A stretch of 64,000 bases of DNA from assembly GCA_040776905.1 (NCBI GenBank), contig JAXGZQ010000001.1, forward strand, positions 795,280-859,279. Reading direction: 5' to 3'. Shown piece by piece: positions 23,091 through 42,373 of the stretch. Each line of letters begins with the position of its first letter. Position 1 is the first letter of the stretch. The notes below the pieces were generated by a model. It worked only from the letters and a program-made list of their open reading frames with translations, did no database searches and was not told where the DNA came from. Made by a program: the position numbers and the translations under genes. Source of the stretch: Clostridia bacterium. GTDB lineage: Bacteria > Bacillota > Clostridia > Saccharofermentanales > UBA5734.

Positions 23091-23109
23091 ACTATCACCT
23101 GCGGTCATA

Positions 23110-23868
23110 TTATCCGCTGTATTTTTCAGGATCACTGAAAATCAGATGTGCACCACCGTCCATGATCATGGTCGTGCCGGTCAATGATTGTGTAAACGGT
23201 CCGCAAAGAAACAAAACGACCTGGCCGATTTCTTCGAGAGAAATCCAGCGTCTGAGCGGGATTTCTTGATAAGTCGGTTCCTTTTTGCCCATACGGGGGG
23301 CCCCGGTATCAACATAGCCGGGAGCCAGACAGTTGACTCTGATTCCATAACGGGCAAATTCCATCGCGGCAGCCTGCGTCAGGCGGTTGAGCGCGTACTT
23401 CACGCTGCCGTACAGGGAATTGCCGGGGATGACCATATCAGACTGGTTTGAGCCGATGACAACAATGCTCCCTTTTGTTTCCGTTTCGATCATCCAGCGT
23501 GCCGCCTGCTGGATACAGAAGTAGGTTCCTTTCCAGTTAAGATCACAGATGCGGTCGAATTTCTCTTCTGTTACATTGACGATCAGATCGCCGTCGGTGA
23601 TGCCAGAGTTGTTGACAAAAACATCCAGATGCCCGAACGTTTCACGGGCTGCCGCAAACAGTGCTCGTATCCCTTCCACAGACGCGATGTCCGCCTGGCA
23701 GATCACAGCAGTTCCACCGAAATGTTCAATCCCGGCCTTAAGTGCTTCAGCCCCCTTTGAGCTGCTGTTGTAGTGGATCATAACCGAATATCCGGCCTTC
23801 GCCAGCTCCAGGGCGATGCCATATCCAACCCCCATACCAGCGCCTGTGACCAATGCTGTTTTTCCCAT
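23110..23868 (-). CDS. SDR-family oxidoreductase
   Basis: TALVTGAGMGVGYG (TGxxxGxG), NNSG and the YGSVK (YxxxK) catalytic motif. The start is taken at MGKTALV with GGAGGA upstream. Confidence 0.85.
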   Translation of the reverse strand: MGKTALVTGAGMGVGYGIALELAKAGYSVMIHYNSSSKGAEALKAGIEHFGGTAVICQADIASVEGIRALFAAARETFGHLDVFVNNSGITDGDLIVNVTEEKFDRICDLNWKGTYFCIQQAARWMIETETKGSIVVIGSNQSDMVIPGNSLYGSVKYALNRLTQAAAMEFARYGIRVNCLAPGYVDTGAPRMGKKEPTYQEIPLRRWISLEEIGQVVLFLCGPFTQSLTGTTMIMDGGAHLIFSDPEKYSG

Positions 23869-23923
23869 GCTGTCCTCCATCTGGAATCATATCCTCAATT
23901 CGGTTTGTGGTGACGTTTCAGAC

Positions 23924-23949
23924 GGTGGCTGTTATGATCAACAGCCACC
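23924..23949 (-). terminator. 10-bp perfect hairpin downstream of the binding-protein gene
   Basis: GGTGGCTGTT-atgatc-AACAGCCACC. There is no clear U-tract. Confidence 0.35.
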
Positions 23950-23996
23950 GCCCAGAAACATATCATCAGATTATCGTTGTGTAGACTATCTTCGTG

Positions 23997-25595: not shown

Positions 25596-25679
25596 GATAT
25601 GATCCTCCCTCTTGTTGTTATTAATTGCCAATTCTGACAAATCAAACCAATGATCTTCGAGATCAGATGAGTTCTCGCA

Positions 25680-26576
25680 TCACCCCTTCACCGCACCAAT
25701 GGTCAAGCCTTTGACGAAATATTTCTGCACAAACGGATAGAGCAGGATAATCGGCCCTGTTGTGACAACCGTCATCGCCATTTTCATTGATTCCATCGGA
25801 AGCTGAGGAACCTCATGGCCGGATTTCTCCGCAACGCGCCGCAGAGCGTCAACACTGCCTAAAACTCTTTGCAAATAATACTGCAGCATGTACATGCTTT
25901 CTTCACGAATAAACAACATGTTGTGATACCAGTCATTCCAATAGGCCAGTGCGGTAAACAGACCAATTGTCGCCAGGAGCGGAACAGAAAGTGGAAGAAT
26001 CAGTTTCAGGTAAATGGTAAAATCATTCGCGCCGTCGATTTTGGCGGATTCAGTAATGGCTTCAGGAATTCCCCTCATGAAACTTTTGGCGATGATCATG
26101 TTCCAAACACTAAAAAGCAATGGAAATATTAGCGCATAATAACGGTTCGTAAAGCCAAGATAGCGGACACACAATATGTACCAGGGAACCAGACCACCAT
26201 TAAAGAGAGTTGTGAAAAAAAAGAAAAATGAGATTTTATTGCGCCAGATGAAATCCTGACGCTGCAGTACATATCCTGTCATGCTTGTGATGAACAGCGA
26301 AATGCCAGTACCTACCAATGTGACAAAAATCGTGTTGAGATAGGATCTTCCGATAATCGCGGGATTACCGATGACAAGTTTATACCCTTCAACGGAAAAT
26401 TCTGGAATGTAGAGGCTGTATCCGTTTTTGATGATATAGCTCTCTGCCGTGAAAGAACTGGTGATGATCAGATAAAAGGGAAGCAGACATAAAATTGCCA
26501 TAAACGCAAGAACAAGATATCCGACCATATTGAATACGATGACATCTCCAGACATTTTTCTTCGACGATTGGCCAT
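25680..26576 (-). CDS. carbohydrate ABC transporter permease (LplC-like)
   Basis: About 6 TM helices, an EAA-loop region (...ESAKIDGANDFTIYLKLILP) and a C-terminal ...YFVKGLTIGAVKG. Confidence 0.85.
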   Translation of the reverse strand: MANRRRKMSGDVIVFNMVGYLVLAFMAILCLLPFYLIITSSFTAESYIIKNGYSLYIPEFSVEGYKLVIGNPAIIGRSYLNTIFVTLVGTGISLFITSMTGYVLQRQDFIWRNKISFFFFFTTLFNGGLVPWYILCVRYLGFTNRYYALIFPLLFSVWNMIIAKSFMRGIPEAITESAKIDGANDFTIYLKLILPLSVPLLATIGLFTALAYWNDWYHNMLFIREESMYMLQYYLQRVLGSVDALRRVAEKSGHEVPQLPMESMKMAMTVVTTGPIILLYPFVQKYFVKGLTIGAVKG

Positions 26577-26591
26577 GAAAATCTCCTCCAG

Positions 26592-27518
26592 TCAGAACAG
26601 TGAATAGTCCGGCTGTATTTTCTTGACAGCTGTATTGGCGATAAGAATTGAAATGAAGCACAGTACAGACTGGTAAAGACCGGCCGCAGCACCCATACCA
26701 ATATCAGAACTCGACATTAAAGCCCTGAATACATAGGTATCGATAATGTCGGTCGTCGGGAGGAGCAGGGCATTGTTGCCGATTAACTGATAGAACTGGC
26801 CAAAGTCGCCCCGGAAGACCTGTCCGAGATTCAAAAGCATTACGATGATGATAGTTGGAATCAAGGACGGCAACGTAATTCTGACGATCTTCTGCCAGAT
26901 ACTCGCACCGTCAATATCCGCGGCTTCATACATTTCCTGATCGATTCCCGCGATCGCGGCAAGGAAAATAACCGATCCATAACCGACCGTCTTCCAGATA
27001 CGAATAAAGACCATCACGATAGGCCAGTAACTGGGATTTGTATACAGATTGACCGGTGTTCCGTCAAACTGCCGCACCAGATTATTGAAGACACCCTTCT
27101 CGAAATTGAAAATATTGTACATGATGGCGGCGACAACAACCCAACTGATGAAATGTGGCAGGAAAATAGACGACTGAGCCACACGTTTGAATAAACGCCC
27201 CCGCACTTCACTCAGAATGATCGCAAGCAGTACCTGTGAAAATAAACCAGTCGCGATAAACGCCAGATTATAAAGAAGTGTGTTGCGGGTCAGGTTCCAT
27301 AGATTCCCAGTCAAGAGAAGAAACTTAAAATTTTCAAACCCTGTCCATGGACTGCCGAAAATTCCGTCGGCGTATCGGAAATTTTTGAAAGCCAGAACAA
27401 TCCCGCCCATTGGAACATAGGCGAATAGTATGATGTAGGCGATACCAGGGAGAAGCATGAGAAGCAAGATACGGTAATCCTTGACATGCTTCCAGAACGA
27501 CTTAACTTTTTGCCCCAT
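26592..27518 (-). CDS. carbohydrate ABC transporter permease (LplB-like)
   Basis: ...YEAADIDGASIWQKIVRITLPSL (EAA loop). About 6 TM helices. Confidence 0.85.
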   Translation of the reverse strand: MGQKVKSFWKHVKDYRILLLMLLPGIAYIILFAYVPMGGIVLAFKNFRYADGIFGSPWTGFENFKFLLLTGNLWNLTRNTLLYNLAFIATGLFSQVLLAIILSEVRGRLFKRVAQSSIFLPHFISWVVVAAIMYNIFNFEKGVFNNLVRQFDGTPVNLYTNPSYWPIVMVFIRIWKTVGYGSVIFLAAIAGIDQEMYEAADIDGASIWQKIVRITLPSLIPTIIIVMLLNLGQVFRGDFGQFYQLIGNNALLLPTTDIIDTYVFRALMSSSDIGMGAAAGLYQSVLCFISILIANTAVKKIQPDYSLF

Positions 27519-27767
27519 CGTATTCCCTCCTGACTCATTTCGTTTGTGTCATACTAACAGGAAGAACTTAAATATCACACAGCAATTTCTTGTAAAACTC
27601 TGCATTTTTGTATGACTTGCACATTTTTATCAGTGATTACATAAACTATTACCCTCAATTGCAAATTAATCCAGACCAGACTGATCGCCCTTCGTGATAC
27701 CATAAGACTCACTGATCAACTACGTGACCAGTGCCTCATCGAAAATGAATAAAAGAGGAGGATCGCA

Positions 27768-28733
27768 ATGAACGTCATGAGTAAAAACGGTTTCTTTGCT
27801 AAAGGTGCAGACATCGGATGGCTTCAGCAGATGGAGATCACGGGATTCAAATTCTACGATCCGGATGGCAAGGAGAAAGATTGCATTAAAATTCTGAAAG
27901 AGCATGGAATCAATAGTGTCCGTTTCCGTGTCTGGGTCAACCCGAATGATGACCCGAGAACAGGCCACAATAGCATTGAGGAAGTCGCTGTTATGGCTAG
28001 AAGGACTCAGGCCGAAGGGCTTAAATTGATGATTGATTTTCATTACAGTGATTCCTGGGCAGATCCAGGTAAACAGAATAAACCTGCTGCCTGGAATGAT
28101 CATACACCAGAGCAGTTGGCAGAAGATGTCTACCAGCACACCTTTGACAGTTTGACCTATCTGAAGAATGAAGGTATTGACGTTGATTGGGTTCAGGTCG
28201 GTAATGAAATATCATACGGCATGTTATGGCCTGACGCACATATTGATCAGTTTGATCATCTCGCTCACATCCTGAATCGTGGGTATGATGCAGTTAAAGA
28301 AGTCTACCCAGTAGCTGAAGTCATTATTCATCTCGATACTGGCAACGACTCAGAGCGCTTTATCCGTTTTTTTGATCAGTTTACGGCCCGGAACGGAAAA
28401 TATGACACAATCGGCATGTCATATTATCCTTACTGGATTAACACAACGTTCACGGAGAATATCGACGATCTTGAAGCCAATATCAAGGACATGATTGTCC
28501 GATATGACAAGGATATCCTGATCACGGAAATCGGCGGCGTTGACAGCGAACCGGATATTACCTATGACATGATTGTTAATGTGATTGATCGGCTGCGCGC
28601 CATCCCGGATAACAGAGCCTACGGTGTTTTCTACTGGGAGCCACAGGGGGCAGAAATCTGGAGCCATTACAAACTTAGTGCTTGGGGGGCTGATGGCAGG
28701 CCGACACGTGCGATGAAAGCCTTTCTCCACTAA
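27768..28733 (+). CDS. GH53 arabinogalactan endo-beta-1,4-galactanase (no signal peptide)
   Basis: FAKGADIGWLQQME...GINSVRFRVWVNP...DFHYSDSWADPGKQ...VQVGNE...ITEIG are hallmark GH53 motifs, including both catalytic Glu contexts. Confidence 0.85.
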   Translation: MNVMSKNGFFAKGADIGWLQQMEITGFKFYDPDGKEKDCIKILKEHGINSVRFRVWVNPNDDPRTGHNSIEEVAVMARRTQAEGLKLMIDFHYSDSWADPGKQNKPAAWNDHTPEQLAEDVYQHTFDSLTYLKNEGIDVDWVQVGNEISYGMLWPDAHIDQFDHLAHILNRGYDAVKEVYPVAEVIIHLDTGNDSERFIRFFDQFTARNGKYDTIGMSYYPYWINTTFTENIDDLEANIKDMIVRYDKDILITEIGGVDSEPDITYDMIVNVIDRLRAIPDNRAYGVFYWEPQGAEIWSHYKLSAWGADGRPTRAMKAFLH

Positions 28734-28741
28734 ATGTAGCG

Positions 28742-28787
28742 GAAAAAAGATCGTCAGAACGTCCTACAGTTCAGGTGATCTTTTTTC
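28742..28787 (+). terminator. candidate terminator of the GH53 gene
   Basis: GAAAAAAGATC ... GATCTTTTTTC outer arms with inner GAAC/GTTC pairing. The 3' arm ends in a T6 run. Confidence 0.4.
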
Positions 28788-28797
28788 ATGTCAGTTT

Positions 28798-28819
28798 TCA
28801 GACATTTTCGTCAACCTTG
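28798..28819. repeat. left half of 44-bp direct repeat DR-L (interrupted by IS256)
   Basis: TCAGACATTTTCGTCAACCTTG is identical to 37649-37670. The last 9 bp, TCAACCTTG, are the IS target duplication. Confidence 0.85.
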
Positions 28820-30184
28820 GTAGTGTCAAGGTTTATGCGCACTTTCAGTTCTCACTTGGCAGCTGGTGATCAGCCAGCGGTCAGATCGGCTGCAACCTCC
28901 ATCTCCAGTTCCATCGCATCGAGGTGTTTCATATTAAGATAAAGTTTTGTCCCCCAAAGCGAATCTTCCATATAGCGAAGCCTAGCACAAACCAGCATCA
29001 AGGCCGAGTTCGAGTCAGGAAAGGCACCAACCACCCGGGTTCTTCGTCGGATCTCACGGTTGAGCCGCTCAATGGCGTTGTTGCTGCGGATCTTCATCCA
29101 ATGCTCATGCGGGAAGCCCATATAGGTCAGCGTTTCAGCAATCGAGTTCTCAACCTTCTTCGCGGCTTCCTTCAGCTTCATTTCTCTGAGTTTAATGACG
29201 ACCGCCTTCGCTTTCTCCAGGGCTGCTGCCTTATCTTCCTGAGCGTGAATCGCCTTGAGCATCGCCGCCACATCCTTCATCTTGCTCCTGGGTACCACCG
29301 TGAACACATTGCGATAGAAATGGACGGTGCAGCGCTGGTATTGGCTTTGCGGGAAGACCGTGTTAATCGCGTCCAGAAGCCCCAGACACTTATCACCAAT
29401 AAACAATCGGGTGCCAGTCAGTCCTCGCTGTTTGAGACTGACCAGGAAGCTATGCCAACTTGCCTGATCTTCCTTCATGCCTTCAGCCGCTCCGATCACT
29501 TCACGCTGTCCATCTTCATTGACCGCCATCGCGACCAGAATCGCGACGTTTTCGTAGTTGCCACCCCAGTTTCGCTTCAGATAGATCCCATCCAGATAGA
29601 CATAGGGATAGGCCATCAACAGCTTGCGGTTACGCCATTCCTCAATCTTGGTATAGACTTTCTGGTTCAGCTTGCTGACGGTACCCGCACTGACCTTGGC
29701 TCCCCACAGCGCTTCGGTGATATCTTCCACTCGGCGGACAGAAACGCCGGCCAGATACATCTCGACAAGAGCTTCTTCCACGCTGATTTCCCGGCGCTGG
29801 TAACGCTGGATGATCGCCGTTTCAAACGGCAGAGACCGAAGCCTGGGGATCTTCAGTTGTACCTCACCGGATTTGGTCAACAGGCGTCTCCTGTAGCTGC
29901 CGGATCGCGTGTCCAGCCTTTTGTCTGTTCGTTCGTAGCGTGTCGCGTTAGTCAGGCGATCCGCTTCTTCATCGAGCAGCGTGTTCAGGGTATCCTCGAC
30001 GCTTTGACGGACCAGTTCTCCCAGTTCCTGCTTTATCGCACCTTCATTAAGCGTTATAATCTTCTCAGACATGGTTCGGTCTCCTTTGCTTGGCTTGATG
30101 TTTTGTTCGTACTTTACATTTTAACCAAGCGAGACCGGTCATGTCTTTTCTTTTTTCAAAGTGCGCAATTTATGATACGTCATC
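28820..30184 (-). mobile_element. IS256-family insertion sequence (about 1.37 kb) with 9-bp target-site duplication
   Basis: TCAACCTTG occurs at 28811-28819 and again at 30185-30193. The uninterrupted target sequence is present at 37649-37692. Both ends carry TGCGCACTTT 16-17 nt in, within imperfect terminal inverted repeats. There is a single transposase ORF. Confidence 0.85.
28870..30072 (-). CDS. IS256-family (Mutator-like) transposase
   Basis: 400 aa. ...RYERTDKRLDTRSGSYRRRLLTKSGEVQLKIPRLRSLPFETAIIQRYQRRE..., VEEALVEMYLAGVSVRRVEDI and ...CTVHFYRNV are typical of IS256 transposases. Confidence 0.9.
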   Translation of the reverse strand: MSEKIITLNEGAIKQELGELVRQSVEDTLNTLLDEEADRLTNATRYERTDKRLDTRSGSYRRRLLTKSGEVQLKIPRLRSLPFETAIIQRYQRREISVEEALVEMYLAGVSVRRVEDITEALWGAKVSAGTVSKLNQKVYTKIEEWRNRKLLMAYPYVYLDGIYLKRNWGGNYENVAILVAMAVNEDGQREVIGAAEGMKEDQASWHSFLVSLKQRGLTGTRLFIGDKCLGLLDAINTVFPQSQYQRCTVHFYRNVFTVVPRSKMKDVAAMLKAIHAQEDKAAALEKAKAVVIKLREMKLKEAAKKVENSIAETLTYMGFPHEHWMKIRSNNAIERLNREIRRRTRVVGAFPDSNSALMLVCARLRYMEDSLWGTKLYLNMKHLDAMELEMEVAADLTAG

Positions 30185-30215
30185 TCAACCTTGCTCAGCC
30201 ATCGGCCGCCTGTCC
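30185..30215. repeat. right half of DR-L (TSD copy plus 22 bp)
   Basis: TCAACCTTGCTCAGCCATCGGCCGCCTGTCC matches 37662-37692 with one mismatch (C at 30209 against G at 37686). Confidence 0.85.
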
Positions 30216-30247
30216 TGAATGATGCAATCATTATCCACCCAATAACA

Positions 30248-30298
30248 CAGATATAGAAAAACGGCGTATCCAGTTAATCACGCCGTTTTCTATATCTG
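30248..30298 (-). terminator. strong hairpin terminator of the low-GC ABC/two-component block
   Basis: CAGATATAGAAAAACGGCGT-atccagttaatc-ACGCCGTTTTCTATATCTG. It lies 35 nt downstream of the permease stop and is T-rich on the minus strand. Confidence 0.75.
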
Positions 30299-30333
30299 TA
30301 TGCAAGTTATACAAAGAATATAATATACTGATT

Positions 30334-31251
30334 TTAGCCTTTAACACCTCCAAGTGTTAATCCCTTTACGAAATATTTCTGCAGGAATGGATAGGAGAAC
30401 AAGATTGGAACTGTTGCAATGATAGTCATTGCGGCACGGATTGAATTAGGTGTTACCATTCCCTGCTGTGAAATACCCAGAGCATCCGCAGCATCGGCCG
30501 TGGCGCCAGTCATTGTGCGAGTTGATGAAAGCAACTTCTGCAACTCAAACTGAAGGGTGCTCAGTTTTGGTCGGCTGGAGCAATAAAGCATGGTATCAAA
30601 CCATGAGTTCCATTGAGTGACTGCAACAAAAAGAATAATCGTCGCAATAACTGGCAGGCTTAGAGGCATGATGATTTTAAACAAAACACGATACTCACTG
30701 GCACCATCAATTTTAGCTGCTTCAATCAGGCTGTCAGGCATTCCTTCGATGTAGCTTCGCATAATCATAACATTGTAAGCGCTCACCATAGTCGGCAGAA
30801 TGTAGACAAGAAAATTGTTGATTAAGCCTAACTGGCGCATCAACAGGTAGACAGGAATTATTCCACCGCTGAAGTACATCGTATAAACAAGAAATTTAGT
30901 CAGAAATTTACGAAGGACAAAATCTCTTCTTGATAGAGTATATGCAACCATCAGACAGGCAAACATACTAGTGACGGCCCCCGTGACAGCTCTGGCTGCC
31001 GAGATGAACAATGAGTTCGTTATATTTTTATTTTCAGTTAGAATAACCTCATAATTTCGTATAGAAAACTCACGGGGAACGAGATAAATGTGACCGCGAA
31101 TTGCATCAGTAGCGTCATTTAAAGATATCGCCATCGTGTTGATAAAAGGGTAAAGTGTCGCGACACAGAGGATCATCAACAAAATGTAGTTGACCGAATC
31201 GAAAACTACATCCTCTGTAGTCAGTTTTCGCATTTTTCTACCTGAAGCCAT
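30334..31251 (-). CDS. carbohydrate ABC transporter permease (LplC-like, second copy)
   Basis: ...EAAKIDGASEYRVLFKIIMP...YFVKGLTLGGVKG. It is a paralogue of 25680-26576 but the DNA is much more AT-rich. Confidence 0.85.
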   Translation of the reverse strand: MASGRKMRKLTTEDVVFDSVNYILLMILCVATLYPFINTMAISLNDATDAIRGHIYLVPREFSIRNYEVILTENKNITNSLFISAARAVTGAVTSMFACLMVAYTLSRRDFVLRKFLTKFLVYTMYFSGGIIPVYLLMRQLGLINNFLVYILPTMVSAYNVMIMRSYIEGMPDSLIEAAKIDGASEYRVLFKIIMPLSLPVIATIILFVAVTQWNSWFDTMLYCSSRPKLSTLQFELQKLLSSTRTMTGATADAADALGISQQGMVTPNSIRAAMTIIATVPILFSYPFLQKYFVKGLTLGGVKG

Positions 31252-31275
31252 AAAGCAATCTCCTTCTACAAATAT

Positions 31276-32211
31276 TTACAGAACACCTTCGCCATCGATC
31301 TTTTTAGATACTAAGTTCGCAACTGTAATCAAAATGAAGGCTACAGCAGAGTTAAAAATTCCAATCGCAGTTCCGTATGAATAACGAAAGTACTTAAGCG
31401 CATAATTGTATACATAGATTTCAAGTGTTGTCGCCACTTCATGAACAGAGGCATTGCCAAGCAAGAATAACTGTTCAAATCCGGCATTCATTAGCCAGCC
31501 TATGTTCAAAATCAGGAGAATTTTTATTGTTGGCATAATTGAAGGAATTGTAATGGCAAAAATTTTCCGCATTCTGCCTGCACCATCAATTGATGCAGAT
31601 TCATATAGCTCAGGATCGATCGCGGTCATCGCAGATAGATAGATGATCGCATTATATCCAACCGTTTTCCATACCGAAGATAAGGCGACAATCATATAGA
31701 AATAATTCTTGACGCCCATAAAAGGAATTGGAGAATCGGTAAGTTTCAGCGTCATTAGCACCTGATTAATAATTCCATCTTCAGGAGATAGAGACATATA
31801 GACAATATTTGCAGCAACAACCCATGAAACAAAATATGGTAGATATGAAATAGTCTGCACCGTCCGCTTAAATATCATATTTTTGACTTCATTCAGCATA
31901 ACTGCCAGTGTTATCGCAGAGAAGAAATTGAAAACCAGCCTTAGAGAACTGACAGCTAATGTATTTTTAAGGGCACGGTAAAAATTGTAGTCCTTGAATA
32001 ACTCCTTAAAGTTATCCAATCCGACCCATGGTGATTTCGCGAGACCGATACCTGGGTTATAGTTCATGAGGGCAAGAATCCAGCCCCAGATCGGTAGATA
32101 ATGGAAAACCAACACTAGAACCATAAATGGTATTGACAAAACCAATAGTTGGCGTTGTTGAAAAAGTTTGGCCCAAAAGCTCTTCTCTCTCGTCTTCATT
32201 AACTGTTCCAT
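31276..32211 (-). CDS. carbohydrate ABC transporter permease (LplB-like, second copy)
   Basis: ...YESASIDGAGRMRKIFAITIPS (EAA loop). About 6 TM helices. Confidence 0.85.
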   Translation of the reverse strand: MEQLMKTREKSFWAKLFQQRQLLVLSIPFMVLVLVFHYLPIWGWILALMNYNPGIGLAKSPWVGLDNFKELFKDYNFYRALKNTLAVSSLRLVFNFFSAITLAVMLNEVKNMIFKRTVQTISYLPYFVSWVVAANIVYMSLSPEDGIINQVLMTLKLTDSPIPFMGVKNYFYMIVALSSVWKTVGYNAIIYLSAMTAIDPELYESASIDGAGRMRKIFAITIPSIMPTIKILLILNIGWLMNAGFEQLFLLGNASVHEVATTLEIYVYNYALKYFRYSYGTAIGIFNSAVAFILITVANLVSKKIDGEGVL

Positions 32212-32293
32212 CAGTGCTGACTCCTTCTATTGAAAAGGAGAGCATGTCCGGAGACATGCTCTCCTCTCAAATGTATTATTATCTCAGATATGA

Positions 32294-34015
32294 TCAGTTG
32301 CCATCTTGATAATATTGAGCGCCTTCTTTTAGTTTTTCTGTCATTTCTGCTTCAAAGGCGGCCAAGTCAAGAGATGCCAGACGGCTCTGATACTCGTCCC
32401 ATACATTGGTGAAATCTGCTGTGTCAGCCATAATGACCTGCGGCAAATACTCAACGGCCAATTCAAGTGCCTGTTCTACAGCAATTTTACCGGAGAAATC
32501 AGCAGGCATTTTTGTTCTGATCGCCCAGCCTGGTTCATACCTTGCAGGATATGAGGGTTGATAAAAATCGTTAAATGTTTTGATGTTATATTTCGCAAGC
32601 AAATCTTTTTCGTAATCTTTATATCGGACATCCAGGTACTCATCCCACTGTGTCGGGGATACGGGGTGCCCATCAGAGAATACACCATAATCGGACTTAA
32701 CATCTTCACGACGTGGGAATTGATCAAACTGGTTAATCCCCTGATTTTTCTGATAGTCAAGATCGATGTAATTATTCCATTGATCTAGTGTTTTGCTTGG
32801 AACACCATCTTCCAATGAATAATCTTCGCCATCGATGCCCCATTTGCTGAGGCGGTTTATGTCCTCTGCTGCCATTCTATCAAGAAATTTGAAAGCAGCT
32901 TCCGGGTCCTCACACTTTGAGCTGATCGCAATTCCTGACTGAGTCGCAAATGCGCGCGGACCACGATAATATTCATTTTCCACACCTTCAAGAACAACCG
33001 GGAAAGCAACTAATGTGCGATCATAAAGTTCCTGTGCTTCAAGTGCATGGATCCCGTCGATAAACATGCTTCTCTGGTCATATACACCAGCAACACGGCC
33101 GGAACTGATTTTGGCTAGATACTGGTCATTAGTCTGCATGAACATTTCTTTATCAAGATATCCGCGATTCCACATATCATTGAGGAATTCAAGGAATGGC
33201 AGATTAAAATCCTGTGTCATGATTGTTTTCGCCTCGAGTGTCTCCTGATCAACACAGGATGGTCCATCGTTGGGGAAACCAGCCATGAATCTTGCAGCAC
33301 CATACTGAAGACCTGACATTCGCCAGCCTTCCGCCGGAAGTGTAAATCCTATTGTTGGATTTCCTTCATATTCAGGATTTTTCTCAATGTAATCAATCAG
33401 GATTTCTTTGTATTCATCAAATGTCTTGATGACCGGCCAATCAGCCTGTTCCAGTACGTCCGCAGCCAGATAGAAGCCAGCCGAAGGATAAAGCGAATCT
33501 TCACTCGCACGTGAACCGCTGATGTAATATGTCTTGCCATATTGCATTTTCAGCAGGCCAAGTTCTGAGGGTCTGTAAGCTTTCTTAATATTTTCTCCAT
33601 ATTGTTCCAGGTAATCATCAAGGGGAATTAAGGCATTTGCAGCGACATATTCGCCTGTTGCTTCACCGGGAACAATAAGGTCAGGATAATCGCCGGATGC
33701 GATCATGATTCCTGCTTTCTGGCGTGCATCTGTTCCTACCAGATATTCGGTTTGTAGTTTGACACCTGTCAGTTTTGTGATTTCTTCACCAACAGGTGTA
33801 TCCCATGGATCAACCATTGACGTCAAAGCATAATTAAAGAATGCGGTAAACGTCTTGACCTCTGCCGGATCTTCATCATCTTGCGAAGGTTTCGTTGTCT
33901 GCTCACCACCGCCGCCTTCTGTTCCGGGTGCTGTTGTTTCAGAACCAGCACAGCCTGCCAACAGCATGACAGCCATTGTGAGAACAATCAAAATAGAAAG
34001 GACTCGCTTCAGCAT
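32294..34015 (-). CDS. ABC transporter solute-binding lipoprotein (LplA-like, second copy)
   Basis: MLKRVLSILIVLTMAVMLLAGCAGS lipoprotein signal. 573 aa. Confidence 0.85.
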   Translation of the reverse strand: MLKRVLSILIVLTMAVMLLAGCAGSETTAPGTEGGGGEQTTKPSQDDEDPAEVKTFTAFFNYALTSMVDPWDTPVGEEITKLTGVKLQTEYLVGTDARQKAGIMIASGDYPDLIVPGEATGEYVAANALIPLDDYLEQYGENIKKAYRPSELGLLKMQYGKTYYISGSRASEDSLYPSAGFYLAADVLEQADWPVIKTFDEYKEILIDYIEKNPEYEGNPTIGFTLPAEGWRMSGLQYGAARFMAGFPNDGPSCVDQETLEAKTIMTQDFNLPFLEFLNDMWNRGYLDKEMFMQTNDQYLAKISSGRVAGVYDQRSMFIDGIHALEAQELYDRTLVAFPVVLEGVENEYYRGPRAFATQSGIAISSKCEDPEAAFKFLDRMAAEDINRLSKWGIDGEDYSLEDGVPSKTLDQWNNYIDLDYQKNQGINQFDQFPRREDVKSDYGVFSDGHPVSPTQWDEYLDVRYKDYEKDLLAKYNIKTFNDFYQPSYPARYEPGWAIRTKMPADFSGKIAVEQALELAVEYLPQVIMADTADFTNVWDEYQSRLASLDLAAFEAEMTEKLKEGAQYYQDGN

Positions 34016-34192
34016 GATTTCTCCTCCTTACCTTGTGTGAAGCAGTCAACCTGCTTCTACTATTATCATAGAAAACGCCGCACTAAAGGAAAAGGCGAAA
34101 AACTATAGATTCACGCTGAATTATTTAAGCATTTCAAACATTCAAAGGTCATCTTCACGAACTATTTTGTGCATATTAAACAACTACTGTCA

Positions 34193-35779
34193 TCATGAAT
34201 GTGTTTTTCGATATTGATGGGGTGTCATCTTCTCTTGTTTCTGAAATTTATTGCTAAAGTAATTATCATCTCGGTAACCAATCCTGATCGCGATTTCTGA
34301 TATACGAAGCTCTGAATTGAGCAATAGCTGTTTTGCCTTTTCTATTCTCAATTTGTGCAGATAATCATTAAAGTAAACGCCTAATTCTTTGCGGAATATC
34401 TGGCCGAGATAAACCGGATTTATATGGAAACGTTCAGCGATTGTCTTAAGTGTCAAATTGCTAGAATAATTACGGATAACGTAATCTTCCACCTGGCTGA
34501 CCAAGCTTGCAGAACTGTTTTCTTTGTTCTGCTTGACGTATTTTGCTGCGTTTTCACAAAAAATCAGTAGTCGTTGCCTAAATAATTGAAAATTCATCAC
34601 TTGGATGGATTCAGTGACCGAGGAAAGTTCAATGACCAAAACCTTTGAATCTGCATTGAATGTCTGAATAATTTTCAGAATCTCGTACGCGATGTAGTCC
34701 AACAAGATTCTGATTGTCTCAGGTGCCAATTTCAATCGATAAATTTCATGACATAAAACAGATACTTGATGCCCGGCAGTCTCAACATCACCTGATGCAA
34801 TCGTGTTAATCAAGTCGATGATACTTTTAGACTCCTGAATGTGATAAGTATAATTTGATTGGCTATGGTCATAACTTTGATCAATGTGATGGTTTGCGTA
34901 GAATTGTCGTTGTTCGAGAATTTTTGCGGCCTGCAGGTAACTTTTTCTTATCTGATCAAATGACGCTTCTACCGAACCAGAAGCGACAAAAATATGGTGG
35001 CCGGTCTGTAGTTCAAGTCGTTTTCTCGTCTGATCACTTAGTTGGTCGACACTCATCAGACACCGATCAATCAAATATTGATTGACCAGAAGGCCATATC
35101 GATTCGTTTGATCCTGAAATACATGTACGAGCCGAGACTCACCGATTATCTGAATAAACACTTGCCTGATCAGAGAGGCTAGTTCCGGTGATGTTAGTTC
35201 GGTCAATGGGCTATCATTCCCATGTGGTACTATGGCAAATAATAAAACCTGCAGTTTATCTTGTTCAACTATGTGAAGTTTTTCCATGATCTCAGAAGGT
35301 TTAATATTCAAAAATTCTCCATCTGCTATTTTTTTCAGATACTGTCCAATCAGATCCTCCTGTATGCGCATATGGGTATTTTTTTCCTGATTTATTTCCT
35401 GAATATCTTTATGGATACCAGATAACGCGTTCTGTAACTCCTCCTCGTCAATTGGTTTCAACAGGTAATAATTGACATGGTATCGCATAGCAATTCGAGC
35501 ATAAGAAAATTCACTAAATCCGCTCAGTATAATAAAATGGATAGTATTACCATACTTTTCCCGGCATATTCGAATGAAATCAAGACCATCCATACCTGGC
35601 ATTCTGATATCAGTTATCACCAAATGTGGATGATATACGTCTATTTTGCTGAGAGCTTCCTGTCCGTCCTCAGCCTCTGCGCATATTTCAAACCCGAATT
35701 GATCCCAATGGATCAATTTTTTGATTCCTTTTCGAATAAAAGGCTCATCATCAACAATCAAAACTTTATATTGATCCAT
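34193..35779 (-). CDS. response regulator with AraC-type HTH (YesN-like, second copy)
   Basis: The start is taken at MDQYKVLIVDDEPF with GAGGA 8 nt upstream. The ORF is open to 35839. C-terminal ...GYRDDNYFSNKFQKQEKMTPHQYR. Confidence 0.85.
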   Translation of the reverse strand: MDQYKVLIVDDEPFIRKGIKKLIHWDQFGFEICAEAEDGQEALSKIDVYHPHLVITDIRMPGMDGLDFIRICREKYGNTIHFIILSGFSEFSYARIAMRYHVNYYLLKPIDEEELQNALSGIHKDIQEINQEKNTHMRIQEDLIGQYLKKIADGEFLNIKPSEIMEKLHIVEQDKLQVLLFAIVPHGNDSPLTELTSPELASLIRQVFIQIIGESRLVHVFQDQTNRYGLLVNQYLIDRCLMSVDQLSDQTRKRLELQTGHHIFVASGSVEASFDQIRKSYLQAAKILEQRQFYANHHIDQSYDHSQSNYTYHIQESKSIIDLINTIASGDVETAGHQVSVLCHEIYRLKLAPETIRILLDYIAYEILKIIQTFNADSKVLVIELSSVTESIQVMNFQLFRQRLLIFCENAAKYVKQNKENSSASLVSQVEDYVIRNYSSNLTLKTIAERFHINPVYLGQIFRKELGVYFNDYLHKLRIEKAKQLLLNSELRISEIAIRIGYRDDNYFSNKFQKQEKMTPHQYRKTHS

Positions 35780-37547
35780 CTGCTGATTCCTCATCTGTGT
35801 TATCAACTGGTACCCTGATCTCAACTTTCGTTCCTTCATCTACTTTACTGCGGATATCAAAAAATAGATCATCACCATATAGAAGAAGAAGTCGGCGATA
35901 AGCATTTGAAATTCCAACCCTTACTGGATGACCCTGAACTTCGCGTATACTTTCAAGTAATTTGGCCAATTCTGATTCTTCTATGCCGATCCCATTGTCG
36001 ATAACTGCAATGGACATGAAATTGCGATCAATCTCAATCTTCACTGTAATATGCCCTTCTCTCTTAACCCCTTCAATGCCGTGTATACATGCATTTTCGA
36101 CAAACGGCTGTATGGCCATTTTGGGGATTCGGTATACCATTACTGAATCATCAGCAATAATATTGTAATTTATCTTATCATTGAATCGATATTGTTGAAT
36201 TTTCAGAAAATCTTCAATATAGCTGATCTCTTCTCGAATGGTGATGTATTCACTATCCCAGACCAAAGAGTGGCGGATAGACTTGGAAAGATACTTGATC
36301 ATCGTTGCCGTTTCATATTCATCTTTCATAATTGAACGCATGCGAATTGCTTCCAATGTATTAAACAAAAAATGCGGATTGATCTGAGTCTGCAGCGCAT
36401 TGATCTCAGCTTGCTTTCTAGCAAGGTCAAGATTCTTCTTCTGAATGTCGGCCTGATATACGTTATGTATCAACTCACGAATTCTGGTGGCCATACGATT
36501 GAATGCGTCAAACAACTTGCCGATTTCATCCTCACCCGAAGCATGATCAATTAGATCGAATTTTTGATGACGAATTCCCTCCATGTGGTGGGCAAGTAAA
36601 TGTAATCGAGATGTCAAAGACTTCGCGATGATCAAAATGATAGAAGTTGAAAACAAGATGTTTATAAAGGCCATAATCTTAATATATGAAACTGATTCAT
36701 CTCCCACATGATGAAGATTATCTTCCGAGAACAATCCAATGATCTTCCATCCCGCCATATTGTATGTATTAGGGAATTTATTCTGCAGTATAAATTGTGT
36801 TGCTTCATTATGTTCTTTGTATAATGCCCACTGATCAGGGAAAATACTATTGGATTCGGAATCAAAAACACGTTTATTATATCTGTCAATTAAATAAATT
36901 CGTCCATCCAGTCGTTCTTCATTAATTATTCGAGTAATAAAATGATAAGTCAGATCAATTTTTAGTATTTTTTCATATGATTGATCGACTCCAGGACGGT
37001 TCAAACCACGAATGATGCAGAAAATTGGTTCATTTCCTCGAAATGTTCGCTCAATGTAAGAGTAAACAAGAATTTCGTTATCATTTTTCTTCCAGGCTTT
37101 GTACCATTCAGAGTCAATGATATCTGAATCAATAACCTGAAAGCCCGATGAGTTGCTTATTGATGTATTGTCAGTGAATATCGTAACATTACTTATATTG
37201 GGATAAACATGAATATATCGGGTCAACGCATTCCCAAGATATTGACGAAATGCCGTATAAAGATCGGTTGTGCTGTCATAATGTTCATCCAGAGCATTAA
37301 TCAAGGATCGGTCAGTGTAAAGACTATGGGAAAGCGTGATGCTGTCCATGATAGTTTTGTTGATGTTATCCTCGATACGAGCGAGGGAATTATTAAGATG
37401 CTCTATTTCACGTTTATGAAGATCATGACTCACCATTGAATAAAATGCAATATTGGTTGTCAGAATCGGTAGTAATACACAAAAAACATAAAGAAGCAGC
37501 AACTTCTCCCGGACTCCAATGTCATCTAGTCTTTTTACTTTACGCAT
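35766..37547 (-). CDS. sensor histidine kinase (YesM-like, second copy)
   Basis: QINPHFLFNTLE H-box and DNGIGI ATPase motif. The start is taken at MRKVKRLDD, but TTG at 37601 is an alternative. Confidence 0.8.
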   Translation of the reverse strand: MRKVKRLDDIGVREKLLLLYVFCVLLPILTTNIAFYSMVSHDLHKREIEHLNNSLARIEDNINKTIMDSITLSHSLYTDRSLINALDEHYDSTTDLYTAFRQYLGNALTRYIHVYPNISNVTIFTDNTSISNSSGFQVIDSDIIDSEWYKAWKKNDNEILVYSYIERTFRGNEPIFCIIRGLNRPGVDQSYEKILKIDLTYHFITRIINEERLDGRIYLIDRYNKRVFDSESNSIFPDQWALYKEHNEATQFILQNKFPNTYNMAGWKIIGLFSEDNLHHVGDESVSYIKIMAFINILFSTSIILIIAKSLTSRLHLLAHHMEGIRHQKFDLIDHASGEDEIGKLFDAFNRMATRIRELIHNVYQADIQKKNLDLARKQAEINALQTQINPHFLFNTLEAIRMRSIMKDEYETATMIKYLSKSIRHSLVWDSEYITIREEISYIEDFLKIQQYRFNDKINYNIIADDSVMVYRIPKMAIQPFVENACIHGIEGVKREGHITVKIEIDRNFMSIAVIDNGIGIEESELAKLLESIREVQGHPVRVGISNAYRRLLLLYGDDLFFDIRSKVDEGTKVEIRVPVDNTDEESADGSI

Positions 37548-37648
37548 TTGGGTTGACCAGTCCTCTTTGTGTGAGCAGTTGACATCATAAACCTTAATCA
37601 ATCACTCTACTAATGCAAGTCTATCATAGTCTACCTGACAGAGTCCGG

Positions 37649-37692
37649 TCAGACATTTTCGTCAACCTTGCTCAGCCATCGGCCGGCTGTCC
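37649..37692. repeat. 44-bp direct repeat DR-R (intact copy)
   Basis: TCAGACATTTTCGTCAACCTTGCTCAGCCATCGGCCGGCTGTCC equals 28798-28819 plus 30194-30215, with 43 of 44 bases identical. Confidence 0.85.
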
Positions 37693-37719
37693 GATAGACG
37701 AGAATGCTTAGACTCATCC

Positions 37720-38928
37720 TCAGGCATCAACCGGTTCATTGGCCTGTTTCTTCTTTTGATGGACCAGCCAGATGCCGAGCAGCAACAGGATTGGAAAAAC
37801 AACAGCGGTCAGTATGCCAAACTTCAGACTGCCCGAGAATACACCGCTCATCAGGCCAACCAGGGTTGGTCCGGCTGCGCAGCCAACATCACCGGCCAGG
37901 GCAAGAAAAGCAAACATCATGGTGCCTCCGGCCGGCAGCCGGGCCGCGGACAGACTGAAGGTCCCGGGCCACATGATGCCGACAGCCAGTCCACAGATCG
38001 CACAGCCGATCAGACTGAGCACAGCACCCGGAGAAAGGGATATCAAAAAATAACTGACCAGACAAAGGACCGCGCTCAAGGCCATGAAACGTTCCAGCTT
38101 CAAGCGGGCGCCATAGCGCCCGTAATACAGGCGTGACAACCCCATCATAACGGCAAACATCATCGGACCGGCTAAATCCCCGATGGTTTTGTTGACACCG
38201 AGTCCCTGTTCCGCGAACGCGGATGCCCACTGGCTGACCGCTTGTTCACTGGCACCGGCGGCGATCATCAGCATCACAAGAATCCAGAACAGCCGGTTAC
38301 GCAACAGCTGGGTGAGGGAAAATCCCTTGAGATGGGAGCCGACCGGAGCCGCCAGCGGTACGCGGGCAAAAAAGAATGTGTTGAACAGCGGAACGATGGC
38401 CCAGAACAAGGCCAGCCACGGCCAGTTTTCAATACCCGCCAGAACAAAAAAAATCGTTGAGATCAAGACAACACCAACATGCCCCCAGCAATAAAATGAA
38501 TGGAGAAGGCTCATCGTTGATTCCTTGTGATCACTCGGACAGGCCTCGACAATAGGACTGACGAGGACTTCCAGCAATCCGCCGCCGGCAGCATAGATCA
38601 TGACCGACAACAGCAGTCCATGGAACGGGTTGGCAAACAGCCCCGGCAGGATAATAAGGCCGACCAGTCCGGCCGTCGCGAAAAGATGGGCCGCGACGAT
38701 CGAGACGCGATAGCCGATTTTATCAACAAAAAACGCCGCGAGAAAATCGACCAGCAGCTGAAAACCGAAATTGAGTGTCACCAGCAGCGTTATCTGCGTC
38801 AGCGGAATCTGATAGATTGATTGAAAGGTCAGGAATAACAGCGGAACGAAATTGTTGATCACTGCCTGAACGATGTAAGCCGTAAAACTGGCATAAATGG
38901 TGTGCTGATAGGTCAGACCTTTAGGCAT
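37720..38928 (-). CDS. MFS transporter
   Basis: 402 aa with about 12 TM helices and a typical MFS layout. The start overlaps the upstream gene by 8 nt. Confidence 0.75.
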   Translation of the reverse strand: MPKGLTYQHTIYASFTAYIVQAVINNFVPLLFLTFQSIYQIPLTQITLLVTLNFGFQLLVDFLAAFFVDKIGYRVSIVAAHLFATAGLVGLIILPGLFANPFHGLLLSVMIYAAGGGLLEVLVSPIVEACPSDHKESTMSLLHSFYCWGHVGVVLISTIFFVLAGIENWPWLALFWAIVPLFNTFFFARVPLAAPVGSHLKGFSLTQLLRNRLFWILVMLMIAAGASEQAVSQWASAFAEQGLGVNKTIGDLAGPMMFAVMMGLSRLYYGRYGARLKLERFMALSAVLCLVSYFLISLSPGAVLSLIGCAICGLAVGIMWPGTFSLSAARLPAGGTMMFAFLALAGDVGCAAGPTLVGLMSGVFSGSLKFGILTAVVFPILLLLGIWLVHQKKKQANEPVDA

Positions 38929-39581: not shown

Positions 39582-40313
39582 ATGAGTGTCTGTGCCGCTT
39601 TTTTTGATGTTGACGGAACCATAACCCGCGAGGGACTGATCAGCGAACTGTTCCGCAAGATGGTCAAATATGAGCTGATTGATGACGCGAAATGGCATGA
39701 ACATGTCAAACCGGCCTTTTCACGCTGGAATCGGCGGGTCGGCGAATATGATCACTATCTGCAGCGGATGGTTGATATCTATCTGGACACCGTACGCAAT
39801 ACCAACCCGGTTCACATCGACTATATCGCGCGAAAAGTGATTGAACAGAACGGTGAAAGGGTCTACACCTTCACCCGGGAACGGCTGCGCTGGCATAAAA
39901 AGCAGGGCCATCTGCTGATCGCGATTTCCGGCTCACCGGTGGAGCTGGTCCGCGAGATGGCGAAACTGTACGATATGGATGATTTTCGCGGCACCGTCTA
40001 CGAAATCGGTGAGGACGGCCTGTACAGCGGACAGATTACACCGATGTGGGATTCCCGCAGCAAACGGAAAGCCGTGCTGGAAATGGCGGTCAAGCATCAG
40101 ATCGATCTGGATGCCAGTTATGCCTATGGCGATACGACCGGAGATTATACGATGCTGAAACTGGTCGGCCATCCGCACGCCATCAATCCAACCCGGGAAC
40201 TGCTCGGGAAAATCCTCTCTGACAGTGAATTACGTGATCTGGTGACCCTCATTGTTGAGCGCAAGGATGTCACCTATCAGCTCGATCCCGACTGCCTCAA
40301 ACTGATTCATTGA
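39582..40313 (+). CDS. HAD-IB family hydrolase (SerB-like phosphatase)
   Basis: FFDVDGTIT (motif I), AISGSP (motif II) and K...YGDTTGD (motifs III/IV). Confidence 0.75.
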   Translation: MSVCAAFFDVDGTITREGLISELFRKMVKYELIDDAKWHEHVKPAFSRWNRRVGEYDHYLQRMVDIYLDTVRNTNPVHIDYIARKVIEQNGERVYTFTRERLRWHKKQGHLLIAISGSPVELVREMAKLYDMDDFRGTVYEIGEDGLYSGQITPMWDSRSKRKAVLEMAVKHQIDLDASYAYGDTTGDYTMLKLVGHPHAINPTRELLGKILSDSELRDLVTLIVERKDVTYQLDPDCLKLIH

Positions 40314-41860
40314 GCAACCGGGTCCGGTACAGGGTCCACCTTCAGATAGTGAAATGAAGCAATACCCTGCTGAGCACACAAACCCGTCCACGTCCCGGTA
40401 AAGGTCATCACATGCGTTCCTTCTGTACAAAGGCCTGCGGTCAGCCCCTTGCCGGCGAACTGCCAGTCCGCGTCTTCGCCCGTCCGCCAATAGAAGCGAT
40501 AATCCGTTGTATCCGCAGTCATACGAAGCTCGACCCCTGACAACAGCGCTGCATCCGGCAGACGGACACGTTCCGATTCACTGATAAGATCATGTACTTT
40601 GCGGCGCAGAGTCAGCCAGCTGCCATCCGCTCGTTTTTCCACCAGCAGAGCATAATAATAATCATGGGTATAATAGGCGGTCAGACCGGCGGAACAAGTC
40701 TGCTCGTTTGTGATGACCACTTTTGTCATTGCCTGAACGGCAAAGGATTTCTGACGCACCATCATCAGACAGGGATCCGGATCATCGAGGTGCTTCCCCT
40801 GTCCGTCCAGAAAGCAGGCACCGGGGTTCAGCTGATACCGTTCGCGATCCGGATTGCGGACGAAGGTCCACTCCGGATTGAGACCCGGAGATTGAAAATC
40901 ATCGAAGAACGCATCGGATACAGGATGATCTGATACTGCGGCACCGTCGGCGGGAGGCTGCGGCAGAGGGCCGGACATGCACAGCGCGATATGTCCGTCA
41001 TCACCGACAACCGGCCAGCCATCGTCCTGCCAGTCCATCGGTGCGAGAAAGGTTTCCCGTCCCAGATGATGCAAAAGCCGGCCCGGCAGCTGACGGATGG
41101 CCAGACAGACGAGCCACCAGTGGCCGGCACGATCCTCAACCAGATCGGCATGCCCTGTCGCCTGAATCGGTGAATGGCCAAAATCACGATGACTGAGAAC
41201 AGGCTGTCTCGGACACGGCTCAAATGGACCGAAAGGCCCGGGCCCGCGAAATAACGTCACCTGGTGGCCGTACTCTGTTCCTCCTTCTGCCAGCAAAAGA
41301 TAATAATGTCGGCCGATTCGGTACAGATGAGGGGCTTCAGGGTGTCGCCCGCCCGATCCCCGGCTGATCACAACTTTATCACTGAGGCGCCGGCCTGTTT
41401 TCGGTTCGATGACGAACGCGGTAATCGCCGGTTCGCCGTCAACCTCGCTGGTCCCGCAAAAATACGCCGTACCATCATGATCGAAAAACAAGGATGGATC
41501 GATCCCTGCCTGATCAACCCACTGCGGCTCAGACCATTCGCCACGGATATCATTGGTGTAGACAATAAAGTTACCGCCATGACTGACATTTGTTGTTATC
41601 ATATAGAAAGTTCCATCATGCCAGCGCAGTGTCGGAGCGTAGATACCGCCGGAACTGCGACAACCGCGCAACGGCAGCTGGCTGTCCCGGGTGAGACAGT
41701 GTCCGATCAGCTGCCAATCCGTCAGATTGCGGCTATGGTAGATCGGAACACCGGGAAAAAACTCAAAGGTCGATGTCACGAGGTAGAAGTCATCACCGAC
41801 CCGGCAGATACTCGGATCAGGATTGAATCCGGCAATGATCGGATTATGATAGGCTTTCAC
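40307..41860 (-). CDS. GH43 beta-xylosidase/alpha-L-arabinofuranosidase
   Basis: NPIIAGFNPDPSICRVGDDFYLVTSTFEFFPGVPIYHSRNLTDW is the hallmark GH43 N-terminus. 517 aa with a C-terminal beta-sandwich. Confidence 0.85.
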   Translation of the reverse strand: MKAYHNPIIAGFNPDPSICRVGDDFYLVTSTFEFFPGVPIYHSRNLTDWQLIGHCLTRDSQLPLRGCRSSGGIYAPTLRWHDGTFYMITTNVSHGGNFIVYTNDIRGEWSEPQWVDQAGIDPSLFFDHDGTAYFCGTSEVDGEPAITAFVIEPKTGRRLSDKVVISRGSGGRHPEAPHLYRIGRHYYLLLAEGGTEYGHQVTLFRGPGPFGPFEPCPRQPVLSHRDFGHSPIQATGHADLVEDRAGHWWLVCLAIRQLPGRLLHHLGRETFLAPMDWQDDGWPVVGDDGHIALCMSGPLPQPPADGAAVSDHPVSDAFFDDFQSPGLNPEWTFVRNPDRERYQLNPGACFLDGQGKHLDDPDPCLMMVRQKSFAVQAMTKVVITNEQTCSAGLTAYYTHDYYYALLVEKRADGSWLTLRRKVHDLISESERVRLPDAALLSGVELRMTADTTDYRFYWRTGEDADWQFAGKGLTAGLCTEGTHVMTFTGTWTGLCAQQGIASFHYLKVDPVPDPVAQ

Positions 41861-41926
41861 TGTTGATACCTCCGCTGTCGTACCAGACTGATAAAGTCAA
41901 GCATTAGGAAAAAAGGTGAACACGAA

Positions 41927-42373
41927 ATGATATATCTCGACTATAACGCAACAACACCCATTGATCCAGCGGTCGCGGATGTGATGGAACCATTTATCCG
42001 TCAACATTTCGGTAATCCGTCGAGCCTTCATCCGGAAGGGAGTTTCGCCCGCAGGGCGGTTGAACAGGCCCGGGAACAGACAGCGCTGCTGCTGGGTGCC
42101 GCACCGGATGAGATTGTTTTCACCAGCGGAGGCAGTGAGTCCAATAACATGGCGCTGAAAGGGGCGATCGCGGATAGCGGCCGCCGCAAAGCTCATCTGA
42201 TCACATCAGTGACGGAACATCCCTCTGTCCTCAATGTCTGCCGCTGGCTGGAACGTCAGGGGCATGACATCACATACCTCCCTGTCGACCACTACGGCCG
42301 TGTCCGCGCAGCGGAGGCATCGGCAGCTGGGATGATCTGTGATAAAATAACCACTGATATGAACATCCGCTGA
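41927..42373 (+). pseudogene. 5' fragment of a class-V aminotransferase / cysteine desulfurase (NifS/IscS-like)
   Basis: MIYLDYNATTPIDP...GNPSSLH...IVFTSGGSESNN...SVTEHPSV matches the first third or so of cysteine desulfurases. The ORF stops at 148 aa before the PLP-Lys and catalytic Cys regions. There is no continuation in another frame. Confidence 0.65.

Follow-up and report, generated by a model that had tools for sequence, protein, structure and literature searches.

A strain-variable region of two sugar-utilisation modules at the 3' end of a small alarmone synthetase gene in an uncultured Clostridia bacterium

A 64,000-nt stretch of the genome of a Clostridia bacterium (GenBank assembly GCA_040776905.1, contig JAXGZQ010000001.1; hereafter the window) contains a low-GC block of importer and two-component genes that is bracketed by a 44-bp direct repeat. 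Comparison of this block with contigs of the same and of a sister species showed it to be part of a 24.3-kb accessory region of two cassettes (13436-37711), located where the gene for a small alarmone synthetase (SAS) ends, in which the block is preceded by a galactan-utilisation module. Three alleles were found in the species, carrying none of the modules (allele N), the block only (allele D) or the galactan module and the block (allele W); one species thus harbors 0, 1 or 2 polysaccharide-utilisation modules at a single site, with the junctions resolved to the base. We interpret the locus as two integrase-less cargo cassettes stacked at one att-like site by Campbell-type or site-specific recombination, a tandem accretion similar to that of cis-mobilizable elements (CIMEs), and hold this reading to be just on the probable side of even.

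Anatomy of the accessory region

The features of the region, with gene families assigned by Pfam, are as follows (SBP, substrate-binding protein; IS, insertion sequence).

12728-13435, plus strand: SAS gene (RelA_SpoT domain, 235 aa), its 3' end the presumed insertion target
13405-13435, plus strand: core copy 1 (GGCAGCCTGTCC, 13405-13416) and the replaced SAS 3' end (GAGAGATGAGTTTTCTTAG, encoding ..CPRDEFS*)
13436-13450, no strand: spacer GAACATTGCCTGGCT, retained in all alleles
13451-28797, no strand: accessory module A, the galactan module
13461-13501, plus strand: R1, a degenerate third partial copy of the block's right end and the first 13 nt of the 44-mer (local alignment to 37623-37661)
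28798-28819, plus strand: left 44-mer, first 22 nt
28820-30184, minus strand: IS256-family insertion sequence, 1365 nt, with its transposase at 28870-30072
30194-30215, plus strand: left 44-mer, last 22 nt, with core copy 2 (GGCCGCCTGTCC, 30204-30215)
30216-37648, minus strand: low-GC cargo block, five genes and a terminator hairpin
30334-31251 and 31276-32211, minus strand: BPD_transp_1 permeases of the block
32294-34015, minus strand: SBP of the block, 573 aa
34193-35839, minus strand: AraC-type response regulator of the block (Response_reg and AraC)
35766-37601, minus strand: histidine kinase of the block (His_kinase/HATPase_c)
37649-37692, plus strand: right 44-mer, with core copy 3 (GGCCGGCTGTCC) at 37681-37692
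37681-37711, plus strand: displaced original SAS 3' end, reading ..AGCPIDENA*, stop codon 37709-37711
37720-38928, minus strand: MFS transporter gene (PF07690), the right border of the slot

As the initial annotation had reported, the 44-mer TCAGACATTTTCGTCAACCTTGCTCAGCCATCGGCCGGCTGTCC occurs intact only at 37649-37692 (0 full copies expected in the window by chance), and a second copy, split by the IS into 28798-28819 and 30194-30215, agrees with it at 43 of 44 positions. The lone mismatch is a single-nucleotide polymorphism (SNP) private to the right copy of the window strain; the right copy of strain L084 does not differ from the left copy of the window. Besides these two copies within 64 kb, the 2.4 Mb of fetched loci held the 44-mer only at the same locus. 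The limits of the block coincide exactly with the repeats, as had been claimed, but the idea of a 44-bp simple att site did not survive: the 44-mer is composite, made up of 17 nt found at the right ends of both modules (37649-37665 in the right copy), then 15 nt of local scar and 12 nt of the SAS 3' end, and the latter two parts (37666-37692) form the 27 nt that occur once in empty-site strains. Two further relationships were tried and rejected: the 32 nt upstream of the core are not recognizable as a diverged copy of SAS coding sequence (p about 0.2), and the likeness between the sequences just upstream of the two 44-mers does not go beyond chance.

The window contains exactly three copies of the core motif GGCMGSCTGWCC, at 13405, 30204 and 37681, and the sister species has one in its empty site. 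The three copies in the window are arranged B-O-P', P-O-P' and P-O-B', which is the expected product of two units inserted in tandem at one core. The galactan module and the low-GC block also end on the right in an identical terminus of 17-24 nt (TCAGACATTTTCGTCAA followed by CCTTGCT), while their cargos are unrelated.

The true slot is the gap between the convergent 3' ends of the SAS gene (PF04607, 1e-33; the NCBIfam match to YjbM-like GTP diphosphokinase fell below its cut-off) and the MFS gene. In sister-species contigs L100 and L101 (79-90% identity to the window), 9 nt separate the ends of the convergent SAS and MFS genes, and UDG, HAD and GH43 genes follow as in the window; MFS also adjoins SAS in the same-species contigs L185, L189 and L191. 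Positions 2039-2070 of L101 align twice to the window, at 13405-13436 and at 37681-37712. Beyond the core, 37693-37711 agrees with the sister species at 18 of 19 nt and the present SAS end at only 13 of 19, and the latter is thus a replacement. By this alignment, the last 12 nt of the 44-mer and the next 19 nt are the displaced original SAS 3' end. The DENA* relic matches the C-terminus of the sister-species SAS protein P0374 (..AACPTDENA), and the 90%-identity cluster of SAS proteins includes variants ending in ..CPTDENA and ..CPTDEKV rather than in ..CPRDEFS. A long donor-derived left flank was considered and rejected, as identity to the sister species is alike on both sides (0.83-0.84 and 0.82-0.88).

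Between the repeat copies, the predicted terminator (about 30246-30300, after the last permease; z = -5.7) and five minus-strand genes were all recovered. The low G+C content first noticed in hand counts persisted in a proper analysis, the block having a G+C of 0.398 and a third-position G+C (GC3) of 0.35-0.43, compared to 0.544 and 0.56-0.64 in the flanks. Matches to the block SBP came first from the same species, then from homologues of 73-74% identity and then from Mahella australiensis (62%). In JGI contig L096, which has 41% G+C throughout, a kinase-regulator-SBP-permease-permease unit in the same order, its SBP 73% identical to that of the block, lies between rpsD-region genes and secA. 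A block of 39.8% G+C in a 54% host, together with the homologues in L096, looks like foreign DNA from a low-GC Clostridia lineage. The suggestion that the block was horizontally acquired is in line with this composition and with its closest homologues, which lie in contigs of about 41% G+C from other Clostridia; no plasmid-borne relative of the block was found. W and D strains differ by 0.43-0.58% in the block and by 0.66-1.1% in the flanks, and this roughly equal divergence argues against a recent arrival; the presence of the block in the species is about as old as the divergence of the sampled strains. In one metagenome-assembled genome (MAG; GCA_028698955.1, L085 2427-4148) the block SBP is called as two open reading frames (ORFs) of 233 and 308 aa instead of one of 573 aa, which may reflect either pseudogenisation or an assembly error.

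The galactan module encodes an AraC-type response regulator, a dCache kinase, a GH2 enzyme, a GH42-like protein, a 504-aa protein of no assigned function, an SDR, an SBP (DUF3502), two permeases and the GH53 galactanase, and has a G+C of 0.49 and a GC3 of 0.50-0.59. The block had been described as a paralogue of this module; that stands at the level of families, but a closer relationship does not, amino-acid identity between the proteins of the two being only 24-42%. On this evidence the counterparts share family and architecture and are not recent paralogues. Similarity between the left ends of the two modules does not exceed chance. A GH53 homologue of 66% identity was found in a similar galactan module in an unrelated context. 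The partial repeat R1 (alignment score reached by 4 of 5000 shuffles) lies in the spacer ahead of the first gene of the galactan module and is absent from the D and N alleles; it may be an arm-type repeat or the relic of an older junction.

Alleles with none, one or both modules

Contigs of the same species, recovered by exact-protein look-up, were 99.0-100% identical to the window and fell into the three alleles. Allele W, represented by the window, L002, L003, L087, L089, L090, L098 and L099 (the module being seen also in L001), has the order SAS, galactan module, GH53, 44-mer, block, 44-mer, MFS, and its left 44-mer carries the IS wherever the junction is covered (L002, L087 and L090). Allele D (L084 from SRR22315502, L085 from GCA_028698955.1, and L088) lacks window positions 13451-30188, so that the block directly follows the SAS gene. 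Allele N (L185 from ERZ27250894, L189 from SRR29457800, and L191 from SRR30999027) lacks both modules (13451-37665) and retains the right 27 nt of the repeat once, in the order SAS, 27-mer, MFS. The junctions read as follows.

Allele N: ...cttag GAACATTG CCTGGCTCAGCCATCGGCCGCCTGTCC GATAGACGAGAATGCTTAG
Allele D, left: ...GAACATTG CCTGGCTCAGCCATCGGCCGCCTGACC TGAATGATG(block)
Alleles D and W, right: (block)GAGTCCGG TCAGACATTTTCGTCAA CCTTGCTCAGCCATCGGCCGSCTGTCC GATAGAC
Allele W, left: ...GAACATTG CCTGGCT TGACCCG(module)...GTCAGTTT TCAGACATTTTCGTCAA CCTTGCTCAGCCATCGGCCGCCTGTCC TGAATGATG(block)

In BLAST alignments the D and N alleles all break at 13450, overlapping by 7 nt, and CCTGGCT (13444-13450) is the left junction of every indel. 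Each junction uses CCTKGCT; in L189, where CCTTGCTAAGCC replaces CCTGGCTCAGCC, it is the T variant that is present, as in the cassette-side copies of the repeat. The longest exact stretch that the two D copies have in common is 20 nt, shorter than the k-mer sizes used, which argues that the junctions are not assembly collapses. Allele N has 54 nt more than the sister species; in alignment they form a single uninterrupted, diverged copy of the native 48 nt, which span from the core to CTCAGGCATC (p about 0.01 for the part of the copy that follows the stop codon).

Allele N was observed on three different flank haplotypes. The right flank of the no-cassette contig L185 shows 0 differences in 1295 nt from those of block-carrying L186 and of L188, a contig not assigned to an allele, and one SNP relative to the block-only strains. 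Contigs L188 and L193 both end at 37670, inside the right repeat and a few bases from the point at which the alleles diverge, as would be consistent with alleles coexisting within one sample.

The initial annotation had taken GH53 and the module at 13.5-27.5 kb as resident and had foreseen an empty site of the form GH53-repeat-MFS. Neither expectation was upheld: the galactan module is absent from the three D strains, the three N strains (about 99% identical to the window) and the sister species, and no galactan-module-only allele was seen among the same-species contigs, in which it was looked for. Instead, the empty sites have SAS, the 27-mer and MFS in the same species, and SAS beside MFS in the sister species. 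A repeat pair from one genome can therefore mislead as to which genes are resident. The possibility that all relatives carry the block, which would have spoken against its acquisition, is countered by the strains of about 99% identity that are devoid of it. The locus offers a clean natural case of the shuffling of polysaccharide-utilisation modules in uncultured anaerobic Clostridia.

Possible histories of the region

From these junctions we infer a history in which the two cassettes would have joined successively at the same short core, by means of a recombinase since lost or encoded elsewhere. The 44-mers would be the junctions of a cassette of foreign origin, which encodes an ABC sugar importer and a YesM/YesN-type two-component system, with the second cassette, for galactan utilisation with GH53, as its neighbor in the strain-variable slot between SAS and MFS. 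The repeat itself would be an att-like duplication and not a free-standing element; its right 27 nt would be the slot's own sequence, belonging to the 54-nt diverged duplicate of the SAS 3' end, and its left 17 nt a terminus common to both cassettes. An N-like slot would thus have received the block with a 27-nt duplication, the galactan module would have been received at CCTGGCT, bringing the same 24-nt right end, and the IS256-family element would have inserted into the left repeat later, in the lineage of the window. Neither cassette would now be self-mobile; they would be lost through the flanking repeats and would spread by homologous recombination in the conserved flanks. The predicted circle junction of the block is ...GTCAACCTTGCT joined to CAGCCATCGGCCGCCTGWCCTGAATG, and that of the galactan module is ...GTCAACCTTGCT joined to TGACCCGTTAATG. 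An origin by insertion is favored by the contiguity of the 54-nt scar in allele N, by the occurrence of that allele on several haplotypes, by the common terminus on unrelated cargo, and by the reuse of one core, the L189 variant included.

With respect to known systems, the locus is of a known kind of genome plasticity, an integrase-less genomic islet, and no new kind of mobile element. It shares with integrative elements the target-bearing direct repeats, the insertion at a gene 3' end with displacement of that end, and the empty site in relatives, but an encoded tyrosine or serine recombinase was not found. CIMEs are defined by retained attL and attR sites and by the loss of integration and transfer genes (PMC5704250), and here likewise the repeats are present and mobility genes are not; a related integrase-bearing element with the same att site did not turn up in the collections searched. 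The precedent for accretion is the ICESt1/ICESt3 family at fda of Streptococcus thermophilus (PMC5704250). As in these elements, cargo units with att-like direct repeats and without integration or transfer genes occupy the duplicated 3' end of a conserved gene, two units are arranged in tandem with a hybrid junction, and strains have 0, 1 or 2 of them; the allele patterns are consistent with repeat-to-repeat loss. Unlike CIMEs, no related integrase-bearing element is known for this site and no decayed mobility genes are present; in addition, the core of 7-12 nt is imperfect and excision is only predicted.

A second parallel is provided by the composite islands of the staphylococcal cassette chromosome (SCC), in which ccr-less pseudo-SCC units are found at the orfX/rlmH 3' end (PMC3900703). 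There too, several cassettes are stacked at one gene end and delimited by repeats that contain the terminal sequence of the gene, and some of the cassettes lack a recombinase and rely on one in trans. The differences are that the target here is SAS, the repeat sequence and the host class are others, the cargo serves carbohydrate uptake and not resistance, and no ccr-type serine recombinase was found. The presence/absence polymorphism between fixed flanks, the foreign composition, the metabolic cargo and the lack of mobility genes are also shared with integrase-less islets in core-gene hot spots, which are gained and lost by homologous recombination and repeat-mediated deletion. Unlike in such islets, the present locus has a gene end duplicated at its junctions and two unrelated cargos with identical termini of 17-44 nt, which simple flank-mediated replacement does not predict.

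Several observations weigh against successive accretion at an att-like site. A Pfam and NCBIfam scan of all genes at 13.4-37.7 kb and of other long window ORFs detected no tyrosine or serine site-specific recombinase (integrase or resolvase) in either module or in the roughly 50 longest ORFs of the window, as had been stated earlier; the sole mobility-type match was the IS256 transposase. The intergenic gaps in the 24-kb insertion, at most about 260 nt, are too short to conceal a recombinase relic. Exact searches for the left 22-nt arm of the repeat gave no hit in 185,579 GTDB species genomes, in JGI metagenome contigs or in IMG/VR, and the right 22 nt (the core half) gave none in IMG/VR; with the arm unmatched in three collections, no active relative is known. 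Scans for the locus with the MFS protein in genomes and the SAS protein in metagenomes, in collections that do not contain this species, yielded only relatives of up to 65% identity. Moreover, the core that the junctions have in common spans only 7-12 nt and is imperfect, and the sole repeat around the galactan module matches at 6 of 7 positions and could equally be the endpoint of a deletion at microhomology. Arms that are 100% identical beside unrelated cargo are also better accounted for by duplication than by two independent elements. Both directions, insertion and deletion, fit the data.

One possible alternative, which we consider doubtful, is that the site has no att function and that the alleles arose by deletion only. 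According to this scenario, both modules came to lie between SAS and MFS through a single ancient insertion, illegitimate or facilitated by homology, with the 44-nt duplication as its by-product. Deletions at a chance 7-nt microhomology (6 of 7 nt), which removed the galactan module, and at the resulting direct repeats, which removed the block, later produced the block-only and no-cassette alleles. This scenario agrees with the shortness of the core, with the lack of a recombinase, of mobility-gene remnants and of any related element bearing the arm, with a junction overlap that amounts merely to CCTGGCT versus CCTTGCT, and with the age of the block implied by its flank-like divergence. However, it requires that independent deletions returned again and again to the same 7-nt site, with both the left and the right 44-mer as the other end and also with the L189 variant, and that a contiguous diverged copy of the native 48 nt was restored by chance; it also has to accommodate a no-cassette allele on three flank haplotypes, and the perfect 44-nt duplication would still call for a target-duplicating insertion mechanism. 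In either history, the block is a discrete unit delimited by the repeats, and the simplest route from allele D to allele N is its loss through them.

The identical termini of the two unrelated modules, joined at one short core, could also mark a dedicated cassette system of an uncultured Clostridia lineage, in which a recombinase encoded elsewhere stacks and removes sugar-utilisation modules at the SAS end, in the manner of SCC or of an integron-like array for metabolic cargo; this appears to us improbable. With such a recombinase acting in trans, the site would serve as a defined landing pad; without one, it represents ordinary genome plasticity.

We regard it as highly unlikely that the 44-mer is a dispersed intergenic repeat or a regulatory or terminator element unrelated to the arrival of the block. 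The right junction (37630-37725) does fold into an extended, imperfect hairpin (z = -3.4 on the plus strand and -2.7 on the minus strand), in which ACATTTTCGTC of the repeat pairs with GACGAGAATG of the displaced SAS end, but it has no U-tract and is thus not a canonical terminator. By itself the 44-mer folds no better than shuffled sequences (z about -1), and promoter and terminator scans revealed nothing particular to it. Its left copy sits between two convergent terminators, where a regulatory role is not apparent, part of it is a gene-end relic, and, as noted above, the 64 kb and the 2.4 Mb of fetched loci contain it at no other locus.

The IS256-family element in the left repeat (transposase PF00872, 8e-109; NCBIfam IS256 NF033543, 356.6 bits against a cut-off of 150 bits) is bordered by an intact 9-nt target duplication, TCAACCTTG, at 28811-28819 and 30185-30193. 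L002, L087 and L090 carry it at the same position, and L089 stops at the IS boundary; its restriction to contigs that, like the first three, are 100% identical to the window marks it as the latest event. Matches to it on plasmids were distant only. The target duplication and the right endpoint of the 15-kb indel (CCTTGCT, 30189-30195) overlap by 5 nt in the middle of the left 44-mer, which could be a coincidence or could mark a site that is fragile or preferred. In L093 (11242-12450), which belongs to an unrelated Clostridiales MAG of 39% G+C from a biogas fermenter, an IS256-family transposase likewise lies directly downstream of the GH53 homologue; the otherwise identical contig L092 is without it. 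Although the position of the IS in the left repeat, its overlap with the indel endpoint and the arrangement in L093 might suggest an IS256-family transposon, composite or one-ended, as the vehicle of the block or of the galactan module, such an origin is close to excluded by the presence of a single, recent IS copy (not the two bracketing copies of a composite transposon) whose intact target duplication indicates a simple insertion, by block carriers free of the IS (L084 and L085), and by the fact that the repeat and all three alleles are explained without it.

Other variation around the locus

Additional differences were noted in the SAS gene and its surroundings. In four members of the SAS cluster (P0365, P0367, P0371 and P0372, from JGI, Logan and NCBI contigs), a 227-aa ORF (MLELLAQGKDV...EPDILQVDG) is fused in frame to SAS, the fusion point being the common residues PDILQVD, and the 5' end of the SAS gene may thus have undergone a further rearrangement or insertion. 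In L182 (303-1523), a gene for a 406-aa protein of the 90% MFS cluster was found beside DUF2087, VWA, PP2C, kinase, ankyrin and radical-SAM genes, and the MFS gene is hence not always located next to SAS in related lineages. An Rfam scan returned only a tRNA (48960-49047). Identity between window positions 40300-42300 and L100 rises to 0.91-0.98 across GH43 and just beyond, from about 0.8 elsewhere, which suggests recent recombination between the species in that segment. Finally, at about 9375-9381 of the window, L084 and L085 have about 115 nt more; their Na+/H+ exchanger is 393 aa long, compared to the 273-aa window ORF (9374-10195), which matches the Pfam model only from position 109, and the gene looks truncated in the window strain.

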